Positions 10,712 through 53,598 of a DNA stretch of 64,000 bases are shown one piece after another. The stretch comes from Streptomyces griseus. GTDB lineage: Bacteria > Actinomycetota > Actinomycetes > Nanopelagicales > Nanopelagicaceae. The notes beneath the pieces were generated by a model that worked only from the letters and a program-made list of their open reading frames with translations, searched no databases and had not been told where the DNA came from. Location: NCBI GenBank assembly GCA_945884695.1, contig CAMCYO010000004.1:56648-120647 (forward strand). The letters are read 5' to 3'. Position numbers and translations under genes: made by a program. Numbering within the stretch: position 1 is the stretch's first letter; each line of letters begins with the position of its first letter.

Positions 10712-11797
10712 GTGATGATTGAGCCAGAGCGCGCTTTAGCCCACGTACGTATGAGTGTACAAAGTGAGCTCACCGAATTCCTCTCCCAACAAACCCAATA
10801 CCTTGGCGAAATTGGAAGCGAACTCATCCCTGTTGCAGAAGCTATGAACGCATACCTTCTCGATAGTGGCAAGCGCTTGCGACCACTCTTTGCTTACGCA
10901 GGTTACTTGGGGGCAGGTGCATCAGAAAATAAAGCCGTCATCAAGGCTGTTGCAAGTCTTGAACTCTTGCAAGCATGCGCACTGATTCACGATGACTTAA
11001 TGGACGGTTCTGACACTCGACGTGGAAAACCTGCAATGCATCGACGTTTTGAGAGCATTCACGAACAAGATGAGCTCTCTGGTTCAGCCACGGCATACGG
11101 TGCATCTGCTGCAATCTTGCTCGGAGATTTAGCTCTGGTTTGGTCTGATCAAATGTTTCATAGCGCTGGGCTTGCACCAGAGGCGCTCTTGCGATCTTTA
11201 AGTGTGCATGATGAAATGCGCATAGAACTCATGGCTGGACAATTTCTCGATATACACGAACAGGCACTGGCAACATCTAGCGTCGCGCGATCTCTAAAAA
11301 TTGCTCGTTACAAATCAGGTAAATACACAATCGAGCGACCACTGCATTTTGGTGCATCTTTGGCTATTGAAAACGAAAATCAACGACAAACACTCATGAC
11401 GATGTACTCAGAATTTGGACTTCCACTTGGTGAAGCATTCCAACTTCGCGACGACTTACTCGGAGTCTTTGGAGATCCAATAATTACTGGCAAACCTGCA
11501 GGTGATGACTTACGAGAAGGAAAGCGCACAGTATTGATGGCTATGACACATGACCGAGCAAGCGCTGCACAGGAGAAAGTAATCGCCCAATATTTTGGAA
11601 GCGATGATTTGGATTCAGCCGGAGTCGAAGGGCTACGGACAATCATTACTGAAACAGGTGCACGCCAACATGTGGAAGATCTCATAGAGAAATTGACACT
11701 CACCGCGCAGGATGCGCTCAATCGTGATGAGATTGACTCCTCAGCGCACGCTCTTTTAGATGAGCTTGCATCGATTGCGGTACGTAGGAGCGCATAA
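10712..11797 (+). CDS. crtE: Polyprenyl (geranylgeranyl) diphosphate synthase
   Basis: Both Asp-rich motifs are present: LIHDDLMDGSDTRRG and FQLRDDLLGVFGD. It is contiguous with crtI-crtB. Confidence 0.9.
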   Translation: MMIEPERALAHVRMSVQSELTEFLSQQTQYLGEIGSELIPVAEAMNAYLLDSGKRLRPLFAYAGYLGAGASENKAVIKAVASLELLQACALIHDDLMDGSDTRRGKPAMHRRFESIHEQDELSGSATAYGASAAILLGDLALVWSDQMFHSAGLAPEALLRSLSVHDEMRIELMAGQFLDIHEQALATSSVARSLKIARYKSGKYTIERPLHFGASLAIENENQRQTLMTMYSEFGLPLGEAFQLRDDLLGVFGDPIITGKPAGDDLREGKRTVLMAMTHDRASAAQEKVIAQYFGSDDLDSAGVEGLRTIITETGARQHVEDLIEKLTLTAQDALNRDEIDSSAHALLDELASIAVRRSA

Positions 11798-13282
11798 ATG
11801 CCGGCACGCGTAAAAGGTCCAACTGACCATGTTCTCATTGTTGGTGCAGGGTTAGCAGGACTTAGTGCTGGCCTCAGACTTGCAGGGGCAGGTCGAAAAG
11901 TCACAATCGTTGAACGTGAAAGTGTTCCCGGCGGTCGCAACGGACTCCTGAAAAAAGATGGTTACGCATTTGATACAGGCCCAAGTGTATTGACGATGCC
12001 TTCGCTTATTAATGATGCCTTTAATAGTGTTGGTGAAGAACTTTCTGATTGGTTAGAACTCACACCCGTTGCGCCTTTGTATCGCGCTTTTTATGCAGAT
12101 GGATCACAACTTGATATTCATGCAAACACAGAGCAAATGGAAGCAGAGATCGCTCGCAACGTCAGCGCCTCTGATGCTTTGGGTTACAGACGGTATGTAG
12201 ATTTTGTAACTAAGTTATACAAATATGAAATGAATGATTTCATTGATCGCAATATTGACTCTCCCCTAAATCTGTTGACTCCCAATTTGGCCCGCCTTAT
12301 AGCCCTGGGTGGCTTTCGCCGTCTTGCTCCAAAAGTAAATCAATACCTTAAAGACCCCCGACTTCAAAAGGTCTACTCATTTCAAGCCATGTATGCCGGT
12401 GTAAGTCCACAACAAGCCTTAGCAATCTATGCAGTTATTGCCTACATGGATTCAGTCAATGGGGTATTTTTTCCCAAAGGCGGAATGCACGCACTTCCTA
12501 GAGCACTTGCAAGTGCTGGGCAGAAACATGGAATTACATTTAAATACAACTCTGAAGTCACTAAAGTAGATTTCAAAAATGGACGTGCTCAAGCTGTCAT
12601 TACCGCATCGGGTGAGCGCATTGAATGCGATGTGCTCGTTCTCAATCCAGATCTGCCAGTTGCATGGCGGGATTTGCTTGGTCGAACACCTGCATCCATT
12701 AAGCGTTTAAAGTATTCACCCTCATGTGTAACTATGTTAGTGGGTTCAAAAAAAGAATATTCGCACCTTGCCCACCACAACATTCACTTTGGAAATTCTT
12801 GGGATGGAGTTTTTGATGAATTGATTCATAAAAAAGTTCTGATGACCGACCCCAGCGTGCTTGTTACCGTTCCTTCAAAAGATGATCCAACGCTTGCACC
12901 TGCCGGTAAACACTCCTATTACGTTCTCTTTCCAACACCAAACCTGGATGCTGACATCGACTGGAAGAAAATGCGTGGTCCATATCGTGACCAAATGATT
13001 AAAACATTGGAATCACGCGGATACACAGATTTTGGTGACTCAATAGAAGTTGAATCCCTAACGACTCCATTAGATTGGCAGAACCAAGGAATGGAGCGAG
13101 GGGCGCCATTTGCCAGCGCTCATACCTTCTTTCAAACCGGTCCTTTCCGGCCTCGCAACCTGGCAAAAGGATTTGAAAACGTTGTTTTTGCAGGATCTGG
13201 AACGCAACCCGGAGTCGGTGTCCCCATGGTTTTAATTTCAGGGAGATTAGCAGCAGAGCGAATTGTGGGCCCGGTGCGCTAA
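11798..13282 (+). CDS. crtI: Phytoene desaturase
   Basis: VLIVGAGLAGLSAGLRLAGAGRKVTIVE...GGR and C-terminal FAGSGTQPGVGVPMV. It starts 1 nt after the crtE stop. Confidence 0.9.
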   Translation: MPARVKGPTDHVLIVGAGLAGLSAGLRLAGAGRKVTIVERESVPGGRNGLLKKDGYAFDTGPSVLTMPSLINDAFNSVGEELSDWLELTPVAPLYRAFYADGSQLDIHANTEQMEAEIARNVSASDALGYRRYVDFVTKLYKYEMNDFIDRNIDSPLNLLTPNLARLIALGGFRRLAPKVNQYLKDPRLQKVYSFQAMYAGVSPQQALAIYAVIAYMDSVNGVFFPKGGMHALPRALASAGQKHGITFKYNSEVTKVDFKNGRAQAVITASGERIECDVLVLNPDLPVAWRDLLGRTPASIKRLKYSPSCVTMLVGSKKEYSHLAHHNIHFGNSWDGVFDELIHKKVLMTDPSVLVTVPSKDDPTLAPAGKHSYYVLFPTPNLDADIDWKKMRGPYRDQMIKTLESRGYTDFGDSIEVESLTTPLDWQNQGMERGAPFASAHTFFQTGPFRPRNLAKGFENVVFAGSGTQPGVGVPMVLISGRLAAERIVGPVR

Positions 13283-14188
13283 ATGGACGAGCTGACTAGC
13301 GCCGGAATCTTAGATCCAGAACTTCGCGCTTCCTACGCCGAATGTAAAAGACTTAATGCACTCCATGGAAAAACGTATTACCTTGCAACGCTACTACTTC
13401 CTAAAGCCAAGCGTCCATTTGTCCACGCTCTCTATGGTTTTGCTCGTTATGCCGATGAAATTGTTGATGACTTAGCATCGCACCTGACACCTGCAGAAAA
13501 AGAGAGTGAGTTGCGTAGGTGGTCAGATTCGATTGTAAAAAGTTTAGAAACTGGCAAAAGTGATGATCACATCGGTAGAGCTTTAATCGACACCGTTAAT
13601 CGCTTCAATATTCCTCATGCACATTTCTCGGCATTCCTTCACTCCATGGCCATGGATCTAACCGTCACCGAATATGAAAGTTTTGAAGATCTCATGAAAT
13701 ACATCTACGGTTCAGCCTGCGTTATTGGCCTTGAAATGGTTCCGGTACTCGGGGCAATCTCGGATCAAGCATATGAGCCAGCAGAAAAACTTGGCACTGC
13801 ATTTCAATTAGCCAATTTCATTCGTGACGTAGGCGAGGATCTAGATCGCGGGCGTGTTTATCTTCCTCTTAATGAGTTAGGAGCCCATGGCGTCGATAGG
13901 GCGATGCTTGAACGGCGCACACTCACTCCTGAAATCGTCTCAGCACTCAAGGAGCAAATTGCGCGAGTCCGTACTTTACAAGGGCAAGCAAATCCCGGGA
14001 TTGAATTCTTGTCTCCCACAAGTAGGCCATGCATTCAAGCTGCCAGCGAGTTGTACTGCGGAATTGTTGATGAGGTTGAAAATAATAACTACGAGATTTT
14101 CACCAAACGTGCTAAAACTTCCACAAGTAAGCGAATGAAGGTTGCGAGCCGAGCATATCTTCGCTCGGTAATTGCTCGAATGGGCTAA
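13283..14188 (+). CDS. crtB: Phytoene synthase
   Basis: YGFARYADEIVDD and FQLANFIRDVGEDLDRGRVYLP. Confidence 0.9.
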   Translation: MDELTSAGILDPELRASYAECKRLNALHGKTYYLATLLLPKAKRPFVHALYGFARYADEIVDDLASHLTPAEKESELRRWSDSIVKSLETGKSDDHIGRALIDTVNRFNIPHAHFSAFLHSMAMDLTVTEYESFEDLMKYIYGSACVIGLEMVPVLGAISDQAYEPAEKLGTAFQLANFIRDVGEDLDRGRVYLPLNELGAHGVDRAMLERRTLTPEIVSALKEQIARVRTLQGQANPGIEFLSPTSRPCIQAASELYCGIVDEVENNNYEIFTKRAKTSTSKRMKVASRAYLRSVIARMG

Positions 14189-14211
14189 GAACATTATTTC
14201 TTGCTAAGATA

Positions 14212-14297
14212 GGAAATACGGGAGCCCATGTGGCTGAGAGGGTCTGAAATTCAGATCGACCGTTAGACCAGTCCGGTAATGCGGATATGGAAAGGGT
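14212..14297 (+). promoter_or_regulatory. TPP (THI-box) riboswitch
   Basis: ACGGGAGCC-CAUGU-GGCUGAGAGGG...GACCGUUAGACCAGUCCGGUAAUGCGGAUAUGGAAAGG aligns element by element with the TPP aptamer core (GGGnGCC, CUGAGA, ACCnuuGAACCUGAUCnGGnUAAUnCCnGCGnAGGGA). The 3' end overlaps the SD GGAAAGGG 5 nt before ATG 14301. Confidence 0.85.
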
Positions 14298-14300
14298 GAC

Positions 14301-14876
14301 ATGAGAACTCTTTTTACAATTTGGGGTTACGACTTATCTATCTTGGAATTTTTTGCAGCCCTGACATCATTTGTTGGGGTTGGCATTGCCATCACAGGAA
14401 AACGTGCAACGTGGCCTTGGTGGATAATGAGTAGCCTTCTTTACGGTATTTTCTTTCTCAAAGTGAATCTCATCGCAAGCGCTGCATTGCAAGTGGTATT
14501 TATCGCAGCTGGCATTTGGGGTTGGTATGGCTGGGCGCCAACGGGTGCGGTGCCGGGCAAACTTTTACCTAAAGCAAAACTCTTATGGGCTATTGCTCTA
14601 CTCATTTCCTGGGTTGCCCTTGCGCCATTCCTGCACAGTATTGGAGCTGCTGCTACTTGGTCTGATTCATTTATATTCTTAGGAAGTTTCATAGCTCAAA
14701 TTCTTATGGTCTATGAAAAATACGAGAATTGGCCTCTCTGGTTTCTCGTCGATGCTGTAGGTACAGTTGAATATTTTGTCCTAGGTTACAAATTCACTGC
14801 CGTTCTCTATTTAGCATTCACGGTGATGGCAATACTCGGCTGGCGCGGTTGGCTAAGTAAAACTTCGCAAAAATGA
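14301..14876 (+). CDS. PnuC-family transporter (PnuT-type, thiamine or thiamine-precursor uptake inferred from the riboswitch)
   Basis: 191 aa, 6-7 TM segments, Trp-rich PnuC-like motifs (WPWWIMS, GIWGWYGW, NWPLWFLVD). It lies directly downstream of the TPP riboswitch. Confidence 0.8.
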   Translation: MRTLFTIWGYDLSILEFFAALTSFVGVGIAITGKRATWPWWIMSSLLYGIFFLKVNLIASAALQVVFIAAGIWGWYGWAPTGAVPGKLLPKAKLLWAIALLISWVALAPFLHSIGAAATWSDSFIFLGSFIAQILMVYEKYENWPLWFLVDAVGTVEYFVLGYKFTAVLYLAFTVMAILGWRGWLSKTSQK

Positions 14877-15427
14877 ATCTTATTCCTGAAATTGAGCTCG
14901 CACTCAATTCACCATCGAGATGTGGAAGAACGCATGTAATCGCAATCGATGGGCGAGCGGGAGCAGGAAAGACAACCCTGGCACATGAACTATTCCTGGG
15001 GTTTAGTGGGCCACGAGTGGTAACTGTGATTGCCCTTGATGATGTCTATGCCGGCTGGGATGGCGCACTTGGCCCCAAACTCACTCACACTCTTACCCAC
15101 TTGCTCGAATCGATCTCTGCAAATAGATCCTTCAGGCTTCCTATTTTTAATTGGCAGATGTCGACCTTTGATTCAGAGCGCATCATTGAACCTTCTGATT
15201 TATTGCTCATAGAAGGCGTTGGAAGTTGCCAGAAAATTGTCAGAGAATTCAGTTCTGCAACCATCTGGTTAGACATCGAGCCAGAAATTGGATTACAAAG
15301 AGTGCTAGAGCGAGACGGTGAAAGCATTAGTCAGGAGATGAAGCAATGGCAGATCGAAGAAGAGAAACTTTTCGCCCACGATGAAACCCGAAAGTATGCA
15401 GATTTTGTGCTTTCTGCAATTGGCTAA
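14873..15427 (+). CDS. P-loop nucleoside/small-molecule kinase-like protein (uridine kinase/PRK-like fold), substrate unknown
   Basis: Walker A IAIDGRAGAGKTTLAHEL and Walker B-like LLLIEGVG. ATGA overlap with the transporter stop. Confidence 0.6.
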   Translation: MNLIPEIELALNSPSRCGRTHVIAIDGRAGAGKTTLAHELFLGFSGPRVVTVIALDDVYAGWDGALGPKLTHTLTHLLESISANRSFRLPIFNWQMSTFDSERIIEPSDLLLIEGVGSCQKIVREFSSATIWLDIEPEIGLQRVLERDGESISQEMKQWQIEEEKLFAHDETRKYADFVLSAIG

Positions 15428-15476
15428 ACAGCGCGCCATACAGGTGCAAATCTAAACTGTTAACTAAGATTTCTCC

Positions 15477-17405
15477 GTGTCAGATCTTTCCGGCGAACTC
15501 ATTGATGGACGCTATGAGCTCATCCGCCAGATCGCTAGTGGCGGTATGGCCACAATTTATCAAGCTTTGGATACTCGCTTAGACAGAAAAGTTGCAGTCA
15601 AGATTATGCACGAGCACTTGGCTAATGATGAAGAATTCGTCAATAGATTCATCCGAGAAGCAAAAGCTGCCGCCGCACTTTCTCATCCAAATATCGTGGC
15701 CGTGCAAGATCAAGGGTGGAACCAGAGCGGTATTCCTGCAGTATTTCTAGTTATGGAGTTGGTCGAGGGAAGCACACTTCGCGATTATTTATTTGAAAAG
15801 GGCAAACTTTCAACGCAAGAGCTTTTACATTTTATGACTCCAATTCTTAGCGCTCTTTCGGCAGCGCATAAAATTGGAATAGTTCATCGTGACATCAAGC
15901 CAGAAAATATTTTAATATCGCAATCAGGCCGTGTTAAATTAGCTGATTTTGGTTTAGCGCGTGGAGATCTGATTGGAAACACGATGACTGCCGAGTCCAG
16001 TGTAATTCTCGGTAGCGTCTCCTACCTTTCTCCAGAACAAGCTCAACGGGGAGTTGCCGATGCACGCAGTGACATCTACTCTTTAGGAATTGTTGCTTTC
16101 GAAGCGCTCACGGGCAAGAAACCATTTGATGGTGAATCACCTATTCATATCGCCTATCAACATGTGAACGAGAAAGTTCCCGCGCCATCGACAATTAATC
16201 CCGATGTTCCGCCAGCCCTCGACGCTTTAATTGTGCGAGCAACAAGTACTAATCCTGACGATCGCCCCCGAGACGGTGAAGCATTTTTAGATGAGTTAAG
16301 ACAAGTTGAGGCAATCGTAGATCCCAAAGGCAGACAACTCAGCTTTGAATTAGACCTTGGATCTGAGCCCATCCGTGATAAATCACGACAGCTGGTAAGA
16401 GTTTCGAAAGAGATTAAAACCCAAACTTCTGAAAGAGTAGAACCTATGGTTGCAAAGAAGAGTCCACGCGAGAGCACGGCAGAAACGGCTCGAGAGCGAA
16501 AGCGACGCACGAGTGCCCGGATTCGTCGCAACCGTTGGATTGCACTCTTTCTTCTCCTGGCACTGGGTGTTGGTAGTTGGTATCTCTTTGTAGGCCCAGG
16601 TACTCGCGTTGTCGTTCCATCCGTTGCGGGAATGAGCGTTAAAGAAGCCAAAGCAGCCCTCACTCCGCTTGGATTGACTTATGAAGTGGCAGAGGAAGTA
16701 TTTAGCGAAGATATTCCTAAAGGAAAAATTATCTCCTCTAAGCCTGCTGGCGGTGGTCGAATAGGCGAGGCCGGAAATGTTTCACTCTATCTTTCTAAGG
16801 GCGCAGAAAGATATCTCATCCCAAATCTTCAAGGTCTTACTGTTGAAAGCGCAACTGCGCTAATACAAACCGATCCACTTGTCATTGGAACTACTACGCA
16901 ATCCTATGATCCAAGAATTCCAGAAGGCGCAATAATTTCAACTTCTCCAAGCGCCGGCACGAAAGCAACACGGGGCAGTGCAATTAATATTGTTATCAGC
17001 AAAGGGATTCAACAGCTTGCACTTCTCTCTTACATTGGAAAAACTGGAGACCAAGCACTTAATGAATTAGAAGAAGCAGGATTTAACGTAACAATTAGAT
17101 ACGAGTTCAGCGATAGTGCACTTCTTGGTGAAGTCATTTCTCAAGTGCCAGCTGGAGACGCTCCTGCATCAAAAGGATCAGATATAGAAGTTGTTGTCTC
17201 CAAAGGTTCTGAATGGGTCTTTGTACCCTCTGGTATTCGAGGACTCGAACAGGGAGTTGCATTAACGATGTTAGAAAATAGTGGTCTGGAAGTCGGTAAG
17301 CCCATTGTTACAGGTAAAAATAAGAAGAAATTCGTCACTCACATCTCACCGGCGGAGAGAACGAAAGTTAAACGTGGCAGTAAGGTCACCATCACAGTAG
17401 GGTAA
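15477..17405 (+). CDS. Ser/Thr protein kinase with TM segment and four extracellular PASTA repeats (PknB-like)
   Basis: GRYELIRQIASGGMATIY...KVAVKIM, HRDIKPENILI, DFGLAR; TM segment WIALFLLLALGVGSWYLFV; then repeated about 65-aa PASTA units (VPSVAGMS..., IPNLQGLT..., LLSYIGKT..., VPSGIRGL...). Confidence 0.9.
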   Translation: MSDLSGELIDGRYELIRQIASGGMATIYQALDTRLDRKVAVKIMHEHLANDEEFVNRFIREAKAAAALSHPNIVAVQDQGWNQSGIPAVFLVMELVEGSTLRDYLFEKGKLSTQELLHFMTPILSALSAAHKIGIVHRDIKPENILISQSGRVKLADFGLARGDLIGNTMTAESSVILGSVSYLSPEQAQRGVADARSDIYSLGIVAFEALTGKKPFDGESPIHIAYQHVNEKVPAPSTINPDVPPALDALIVRATSTNPDDRPRDGEAFLDELRQVEAIVDPKGRQLSFELDLGSEPIRDKSRQLVRVSKEIKTQTSERVEPMVAKKSPRESTAETARERKRRTSARIRRNRWIALFLLLALGVGSWYLFVGPGTRVVVPSVAGMSVKEAKAALTPLGLTYEVAEEVFSEDIPKGKIISSKPAGGGRIGEAGNVSLYLSKGAERYLIPNLQGLTVESATALIQTDPLVIGTTTQSYDPRIPEGAIISTSPSAGTKATRGSAINIVISKGIQQLALLSYIGKTGDQALNELEEAGFNVTIRYEFSDSALLGEVISQVPAGDAPASKGSDIEVVVSKGSEWVFVPSGIRGLEQGVALTMLENSGLEVGKPIVTGKNKKKFVTHISPAERTKVKRGSKVTITVG

Positions 17406-53471: not shown

Positions 53472-53487
53472 GTAAAGCCTTTCGCAC

Positions 53488-53598
53488 TTGCTGATAGTAA
53501 GAACTATCAACCTGGTCTTCACCCGGAGCACCCCGCCGCGATGGAGGGTTGCCGTCTAGTTAGCCGGGGCTCGCACCTAGAACTCGTGACCTGGTGAT
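53488..53598 (-). promoter_or_regulatory. SAM-IV riboswitch
   Basis: The minus strand reads GGUCACGAGUUCUAGGUGCGAGCCCCGGCUAACUAGACGGCAACCCUCCAUCGCGGCGGGGUGCUCCGGGUGAAGACCAGGUUGAUAGUUCUUACUAUC. This is almost position-for-position the SAM-IV core (GGUCAuGAGU..CCAGC..AGCCCCGGCU.GCUGG.CGGCAACCCUCC..GCGG.GGGGUGC.CCGGGUGA.GACCAGGUUG), with compensatory changes in P2 (CUAG/CUAG). The SD GAAAGG follows. Confidence 0.9.

Follow-up and report, generated by a model that had tools for sequence, protein, structure and literature searches.

Among the thiamine pyrophosphate (TPP) riboswitches (RF00059), variants with mutations in the P4-P5 core were described by McCown et al. 2017 (PMC5473149), who cite unpublished work on them ('Roth et al., in prep.'); these RNAs are reported there to bind thiamin about as well as thiamine monophosphate (TMP) and TPP, and to coexist with canonical forms in some cases. 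A "THI element" before pnuC was reported in acI genomes by Kang et al. 2017 (PMC5301498), together with the prediction of a PnuT transporter and a note of thiamine auxotrophy; almost all salvage enzymes were said to be missing, and the adjacent kinase was not discussed. PnuT of Shewanella woodyi is a thiamine facilitator (Jaehme et al. 2018, PMC5749112), and OMthi-pnuT-tnr3 operons are found in Bacteroidetes (Costliow and Degnan 2017, PMC5613172). We analysed a locus of the type reported for acI, from the same bacterial family (Nanopelagicaceae), which lies in a 64,000-nt stretch, the window, of contig CAMCYO010000004.1 (assembly GCA_945884695.1, positions 56,648 to 120,647, forward strand); the window genome, G000, measures 1.48 Mb and is 100% complete. 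At this locus a THI-type leader RNA precedes pnuT and the gene of a P-loop kinase.

Few bacteria are as abundant in fresh water as the Nanopelagicaceae (acI), which need external vitamin B1. Published reconstructions end at the import by PnuT and offer no explanation of how thiamine becomes TMP. Considering the genomic context together with the gap in the pathway, we regard it as moderately probable that the locus is a riboswitch-controlled thiamine salvage operon, in which the kinase is a non-orthologous thiamine kinase (EC 2.7.1.89). THI-regulated PnuT in acI is already published (PMC5301498), and only the assignment of the kinase is new.

The gap in the thiamine pathway and the kinase

ThiL is encoded in the window genome (202 bits), and searches of this genome for thiamine pyrophosphokinase (TPK), ThiC and ThiM found none. 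There is no true match to ThiE, the marginal one being a His_biosynth protein (HisA/F-type), and its absence was confirmed with TIGR00693; the marginal ThiD match is a PfkB protein, and ThiG gave a marginal match of 30 bits. Since ThiL is present and TPK, ThiC, ThiD, ThiE and ThiM are missing, the only workable route to TPP leads from thiamine to TMP and from TMP to TPP, and its first step has no assigned enzyme.

The kinase has a Walker-A motif and shows weak matches to many P-loop kinase families. Its best family match is NCBIfam NF005115/PRK06547, a "hypothetical protein" family, with 104.3 bits against a cut-off of 173, followed by uridine kinase and phosphoribulokinase models, far under their cut-offs. 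The kinase is outside the udk, TPK and ThiK families, and is a sub-threshold relative of PRK06547 only. The AlphaFold2 model (predicted local distance difference test, pLDDT, of 94) was compared by Foldseek and resembles uridine kinases, uridine-cytidine kinases and phosphoribulokinase, with a template modelling (TM) score of about 0.71 and 17-24% identity; the fold does not single out a substrate. The closest sequence relative in the PDB is 1RZ3 ('possible uridine kinase', Bacillus stearothermophilus), whose function is not assigned. Among the conserved residues are K33/T34 of the P-loop, D56, E114 and R143/R147, and also Y59, W62 and W94, which may line a thiamine pocket.

Such a protein might be a divergent nucleoside kinase (of uridine/cytidine type or similar) serving housekeeping salvage, with pnuT as its neighbour through frozen gene order. 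The best named matches and the fold, those of uridine kinase and phosphoribulokinase, agree with this explanation, as does the fact that the gene is the sole PRK-family member in the genome. Nevertheless, we consider it unlikely: on the udk equivalogs the kinase reaches 39.4 bits against 220.3 (TIGR00235) and 44.3 against 180 (NF004018), and the Pfam PRK family (PF00485), matched at 34.9 bits for a cut-off of 22, covers residues 76-150 only. The gene neighbourhoods described below bear on the same explanation.

In G187 (G187:C1:510193-510711, stop TGA) and in several genomes of genus g31 (G061, G078, G092, G116, G128, G150, G161 and G191), the kinase profile match crosses one in-frame stop near the N-terminus, which probably means a shorter kinase starting near residue 19-22.

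Genomic associations of the kinase

The family sample comprised 151 Nanopelagicaceae genomes from 18 genera. The variant leader RNA and the adjacent pnuT-kinase pair were found together at all 38 loci that bear pnuC. Within the genus of the window genome, kinase homologues occur in 30 of the 31 other genomes, and pnuC lies directly upstream of the kinase at 13 of the 29 sister-genome loci examined, which makes 14 with the window locus. The order crtB, RNA, pnuT, kinase, pknB is kept across many genera. The RNA-pnuT-kinase unit is intact at three loci with rearranged flanks (L107, L120 and L130). It was also found in a metagenomic lineage whose kinase is 36% identical (L214), where the two genes overlap by 4 nt. 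In two genomes, G159 and G137, pnuT is missing, and a promoter-like box and the variant riboswitch stand directly ahead of the kinase.

A second transporter is associated with the kinase outside the family. The operon ykoE-ykoD-ykoC-kinase of Mycolicibacterium chubuense begins with a canonical TPP riboswitch (58.7 bits). Five further genomes in the sample of that species' family share this gene order, and in two of these a TPP riboswitch is present (63 and 67 bits). In total, ykoEDC-kinase operons were found in six Mycobacteriales genomes, and a canonical TPP riboswitch stands at the head of three. The kinases linked to ykoEDC are true PRK06547 members (187-227 bits), and the window kinase is 37% identical to that of M. 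chubuense. In Kocuria tytonis a TPP-controlled ykoEDC is convergent to the kinase gene. In one ykoEDC-kinase operon (G196, L201 997-2394) a gap of about 1.4 kb separates ykoE from ykoD and may hold an extra gene.

The distribution of ThiE is complementary to that of the kinase. ThiE scored above its cut-off in 11 of the 151 family genomes; nine of these belong to genera g6, g38 and g39, and all nine are without the kinase. The kinase is present in every ThiE-negative family genome that is at least 90% complete. Some genomes of the window's genus have the kinase and neither pnuT nor ThiE; five of them were examined, and a single canonical TPP riboswitch is present in each. Its downstream gene was determined in G014 and belongs to a ThiB-type thiamine ATP-binding cassette (ABC) importer (TIGR01254, 228 bits). 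In kinase-bearing genomes without pnuT and ThiE, thiamine is still taken up and has still to be phosphorylated.

For a housekeeping nucleoside kinase, it can be said that the gene always lies directly upstream of pknB, that about half of the genus keeps it without pnuT or a riboswitch, and that most actinomycete homologues are without linkage to thiamine genes. However, the THI-type linkage extends over two orders and two unrelated transporters, and exists even where no transporter is present; the adjacency outlasts the rearrangement of the flanks, and the gene is missing from the ThiE-positive genera g6, g38 and g39.

The kinase might also act on another thiamine-related compound, such as hydroxymethylpyrimidine (HMP), hydroxyethylthiazole (HET), an antivitamin analogue or TMP. 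YkoEDC is predicted to carry HMP besides thiamine (Rodionov 2019 table), and the riboswitch retains only its pyrimidine-recognising half. We give this explanation little credence, since phosphorylated HMP or HET would be unusable in a genome where ThiD, ThiE and ThiM are missing. As to TMP, its conversion to TPP is already performed by ThiL, and the characterised PnuT carries thiamine, not thiamine phosphates (Jaehme 2018, PMC5749112).

These associations bear on a first-pass annotation of the window, made from its letters and open reading frames (ORFs). It had supposed a vitamin-auxotrophic genome, in agreement with a thiamine gene inventory that gives ThiL only. The co-occurrence of the kinase with THI-regulated pnuT across genomes, named there as a check, is displayed by the pnuC-bearing loci without exception. 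It had also reckoned with the kinase family being a characterised nucleoside kinase without THI linkage, which did not come out: the udk scores are far under the cut-offs and the THI linkage recurs. Among the substrates proposed there for a non-orthologous kinase in a PnuT module, thiamine is supported by the pathway gap, the two transporters and the ThiE complementarity, and HMP and HET are dropped for want of ThiD, ThiE and ThiM.

Several observations weigh against a thiamine kinase. The fold and the best family matches are those of nucleoside or sugar-phosphate kinases. In about half of the genus genomes the kinase gene follows idsA directly and has no riboswitch ahead of it, the kinase is retained in two or three ThiE-positive species, and most homologues in other Actinomycetes have neither a thiamine-related neighbour nor a nearby TPP riboswitch. 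Gene order varies very little in this streamlined family, so that adjacency within the family is by itself weak evidence, and the complementarity of ThiE and kinase may stem from only one or few evolutionary events among related genera. The window genome also encodes a kinase of the aminoglycoside phosphotransferase (APH) fold without family assignment (329 aa, L204:1231-2220, minus strand), beside a short-chain dehydrogenase/reductase (SDR) gene; its best match is methylthioribose (MTR) kinase, with 87 bits against a cut-off of 275, and it could be a ThiK-like enzyme. No ThiK model matched any of the proteins of this genome that were tested. Finally, experimental work on any member of the kinase family was not found in the searchable literature.

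When the neighbour ORFs of 38 loci from high-GC actinomycetes were clustered all against all, none emerged cleanly as conserved.

The leader RNA, pnuT and the layout of the locus

The leader matches RF00059 at 14208-14309 with 30.2 bits (E = 1.8e-4 locally and 3.3e-4 genome-wide), against a gathering threshold of 54.3 bits. This is the sole TPP-like match in the whole genome, and the whole-window Rfam scan at gathering thresholds gave no RF00059 match. In the alignment the P1 pairs are non-canonical (cmscan) and the P4/P5 arm contains deletions.

The same leader element was found upstream of 14 of 14 kinase-adjacent pnuC genes in the genus, the window locus included. With a structure written by hand, 95% of the alignment cells are paired and compensatory changes occur at five pairs among these 14 loci; RNAalifold recovered the identical fold independently. 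The two pairs that stand in place of J4-5/J5-4 covary freely (AU, GC, GU, UA). In most other genera the P4-P5 arm is a perfect 8-bp helix, CCAGTTCG/CGAATTGG (also written CCAGUUCG/CGAAUUGG), and the homologues linked to pnuT there score 36-40 bits with RF00059. The CUGAGA junction and the L5 loop GUAAUG are invariant in the variant RNA. The leader is a real, covarying THI-type variant, far beyond chance, and it misses the RF00059 threshold because it is a variant devoid of the pyrophosphate pocket, not because it is spurious.

Conserved P1 complementarity is absent among the 14 leader sequences. There is no space for P1, since a TGnTAnnnT-like block, kept at this place in 14 of 14 genus loci, lies only 7-8 nt before the first paired base. 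A P1 in which the 5' leader would pair with bases 3' of GGAA was considered and rejected; it was seen in the L010/L011 pair (ACAAAC/GUUUGU) only and is not conserved. The putative extended -10 element is drawn from this conservation only, because a sigma-70 consensus scan of 14100-15600 gave no promoter; a scan of the same region for intrinsic terminators found none.

The half of the aptamer that senses the pyrimidine (P2/P3, the CUGAGA junction and ACC) is retained: it is invariant in alignment A1, where the P2, P3 and P3a pairing is supported, and reads CUGAGA and ACGGGAG...GACCG in the window. The pyrophosphate sensor J4-5/J5-4 (GAU...CGU in E. coli thiM) has no counterpart in the window RNA. 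In the thiM structures, the loop with G60, C77 and G78 holds the pyrophosphate through Mg2+, and we take the corresponding positions of the variant to be those of J4-5/J5-4. As this loop is replaced by base pairs, the pyrophosphate pocket is gone, and the leader is probably not TPP-specific.

A covariance model of the variant matches 134 of the 151 family genomes, in all 18 genera and usually once per genome; a minority of the matches, in about nine genomes, are canonical TPP riboswitches. The latter score 58-72 Rfam bits, possess P1 and a ACCUGAUCCGG...CCGGCGUAGGGA core, and are weaker matches of the variant model. They are followed by thiC-thiM-thiE or by genes for a thiO-like oxidase, a CytX-type permease, ThiB-type binding proteins or a YkoE-type permease, and none stands ahead of pnuT in the family; the variant RNA is found only ahead of pnuT-kinase or of the kinase alone. 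Therefore, the two aptamer types serve different genes in the family. Canonical forms occur in genomes related to the carriers of the variant, whose P4-P5 core is altered, as for the variants of McCown 2017; no genome containing both forms was found. Genus g6, at one time taken as a case of the variant RNA without the kinase, was discarded, its matches being canonical TPP riboswitches (two forms).

At its 3' end the aptamer runs into the translation signals of pnuT. The first two G of the Shine-Dalgarno (SD)-like GGAAAGGG (G14289-G14290) are the end of the P4 3' strand, and a purine-rich GGAAgG block is kept at this position in the alignments. At 14873-14876 the stop TGA of pnuT shares bases with the start ATG of the kinase (ATGA), as read from the sequence. 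In the single-sequence minimum free energy (MFE) fold of 14216-14310 (z = -1.2), the P3 region pairs with the SD/start region and P2 is not formed; such anti-SD pairing in P3, which would make the leader an ON switch, was considered.

The first-pass annotation had correctly read the PnuC-family gene ahead of the kinase gene, the ATGA overlap, the meeting of the aptamer 3' strand with the SD, and the kinase-like ORF, in which the IAIDGRAGAGKTTLA and LLLIEGVG motifs are present. Its "clear THI-box aptamer" has to be revised, in view of the Rfam score and the unpaired P1. A score below the Rfam threshold, named there as speaking against the proposal, was indeed obtained; the RNA is not spurious for that reason, covariation supporting a real variant.

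The pnuT product matches PF04973 over its full length (122.2 bits, cut-off 27.3). From the THI-type leader, the paralogue described next and Kang 2017, it is predicted to carry thiamine. A second Pnu paralogue of 241 aa lies directly behind a flavin mononucleotide (FMN) riboswitch (94 bits; L209 3245-4103, that is G000:C1:206744-207602) and, because of this position, is presumably a PnuX-type riboflavin transporter, so that each of the two Pnu paralogues has its own vitamin riboswitch, one THI-type and one FMN.

A module of PnuC and a nicotinamide riboside kinase (NadR or Nrk1 type), preceded by a degenerate and non-functional THI relic, would agree with the NCBIfam name of the transporter (PnuC, TIGR01528) and with the P-loop kinase fold of Nrk1, to which there is a weak PDB match (2p0e, E = 0.009) in the P-loop region only. 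We find this highly improbable: unlike a relic, the RNA shows strong purifying selection and compensatory changes throughout 18 genera. The module is also rejected on account of the FMN control of the second Pnu paralogue and of the presence of NadA (330 bits), and so of de novo NAD synthesis.

Table 1. Coordinates of the leader, the two genes and the surrounding features in the window
Feature	Position	Strand	Description
Putative extended -10 element	14202..14210	+	TGcTAAGAT; 7-8 nt 5' of first aptamer base
Variant THI-type aptamer	14218..14290	+	P2, P3, P3a, continuous P4-P5; without P1, without J4-5/J5-4
P2	14218-14221 paired with 14260-14263	+	
P3 hairpin	14224-14234	+	
CUGAGA	14234-14239	+	
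P3a	14241-14247 paired with 14251-14257	+	
P4-P5 continuous helix	14268-14275 paired with 14282-14290	+	loop GUAAUG 14276-14281
Shine-Dalgarno-like GGAAAGGG	14289..14296	+	purine-rich; 5 nt before pnuT ATG
pnuT	14301..14876	+	191 aa, Pnu-family facilitator; PF04973 122 bits, TIGR01528 71 bits
P-loop kinase, candidate thiamine kinase	14873..15427	+	184 aa, divergent PRK06547/uridine-kinase-fold
Carotenoid gene run	10712..14188	+	includes squalene/phytoene synthase (PF00494, 234 bits)
pknB	15477..17405	+	PknB-type Ser/Thr kinase, four PASTA domains; starts 49 nt past P-loop kinase
SAM-IV riboswitch	53479..53591	-	98.5 bits

The carotenoid gene run lies immediately upstream of the leader; besides the synthase it contains a 361-aa ORF and a 494-aa ORF, which by the look of their sequences may be a polyprenyl synthase and a phytoene desaturase. 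In many sister genomes crtI, crtB and pnuT are jointly missing, so that the 361-aa gene has the kinase gene as its immediate downstream neighbour. On the other side, pknB is the invariant downstream neighbour of the P-loop kinase across the family. The SAM-IV riboswitch is the only above-threshold Rfam match in the window.

Proposed mechanism and relation to known systems

We propose that transcription of the leader begins near 14216-14218, only a few bases 5' of the aptamer, and that thiamine or its phosphates are bound via the pyrimidine pocket of the variant aptamer. With the pyrophosphate-sensing loop replaced by a plain helix, the affinity for thiamine is most likely close to that for TMP or TPP. 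The ligand would fix P4-P5 and the adjoining SD would be occluded, which would presumably lower the translation of pnuT. Translation of the kinase would drop too, through its ATGA coupling to pnuT. PnuT would let thiamine diffuse in, equilibrating it across the membrane, as has been demonstrated for the Shewanella PnuT, and the kinase would phosphorylate thiamine to TMP and so prevent its loss from the cell. The final conversion of TMP to TPP would fall to ThiL, whose gene lies elsewhere in the genome.

A broader proposal can be put forward only tentatively. Kinases of the PRK06547 type may be an unrecognised thiamine kinase family that feeds ThiL in Actinobacteria where TPK and ThiK are absent and that, in Nanopelagicales, is co-expressed with PnuT under a pyrophosphate-blind riboswitch, in an operon sensing the free vitamin instead of the finished cofactor. 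If the thiamine kinase assignment is true, the pathway hole of acI is closed, a function is given to the PRK06547 "hypothetical protein" family, widespread in Actinomycetes including Mycobacteriales, and a third, non-orthologous solution for thiamine phosphorylation stands beside TPK and ThiK. The transporter type also matches the riboswitch type, the facilitator and kinase going with the pyrophosphate-blind variant, and the ABC importer and biosynthesis genes with canonical TPP riboswitches; this bears on why such variants exist. A literature search for a P-loop thiamine kinase or a kinase linked to ykoEDC returned nothing relevant, subscription journals being outside its coverage. The thiamine-kinase role of PRK06547-type kinases appears new within the searchable literature, the RNA and PnuT being already known.

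Compared with the TPP riboswitch of RF00059 and the McCown variants, the window RNA has the same P2/P3/P3a/P4-P5 architecture, the CUGAGA pyrimidine sensor and the L5 loop GUAAUG and, as for these variants, variant and canonical forms are found within one bacterial family. Unlike RF00059 members, it scores under the cut-off, is without P1, and has J4-5/J5-4 replaced by covarying base pairs; P4 runs straight into the SD, and a distinct expression platform is absent. By its P4-P5 anatomy, the RNA would fit the thiamin-accepting variants.

In the same way as in the systems of PnuT with a trapping kinase, a Pnu facilitator stands behind a THI-type riboswitch with a kinase in the operon, as expected for diffusion followed by metabolic trapping. 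In contrast to PnuT-TPK/Tnr3, however, the partner in the window is a P-loop protein of the uridine-kinase fold, neither TPK/Tnr3 nor the APH-fold ThiK, its product would be TMP, passed on to ThiL, and the riboswitch is without the pyrophosphate pocket. The kinase shares its P-loop, Asp and lid Arg residues with NF005115/PRK06547 and with 1RZ3. ThiK of E. coli (EC 2.7.1.89) has an APH/choline-kinase-like fold and converts thiamine and ATP to TMP, feeding ThiL; the reaction proposed for the window kinase is the same and the fold is unrelated. Finally, as in PnuC-NadR with its ribosylnicotinamide kinase (RNK) domain, a Pnu facilitator has a P-loop kinase for small molecules as its partner, but for another vitamin, and the window kinase is free-standing and does not belong to the NadR RNK family.

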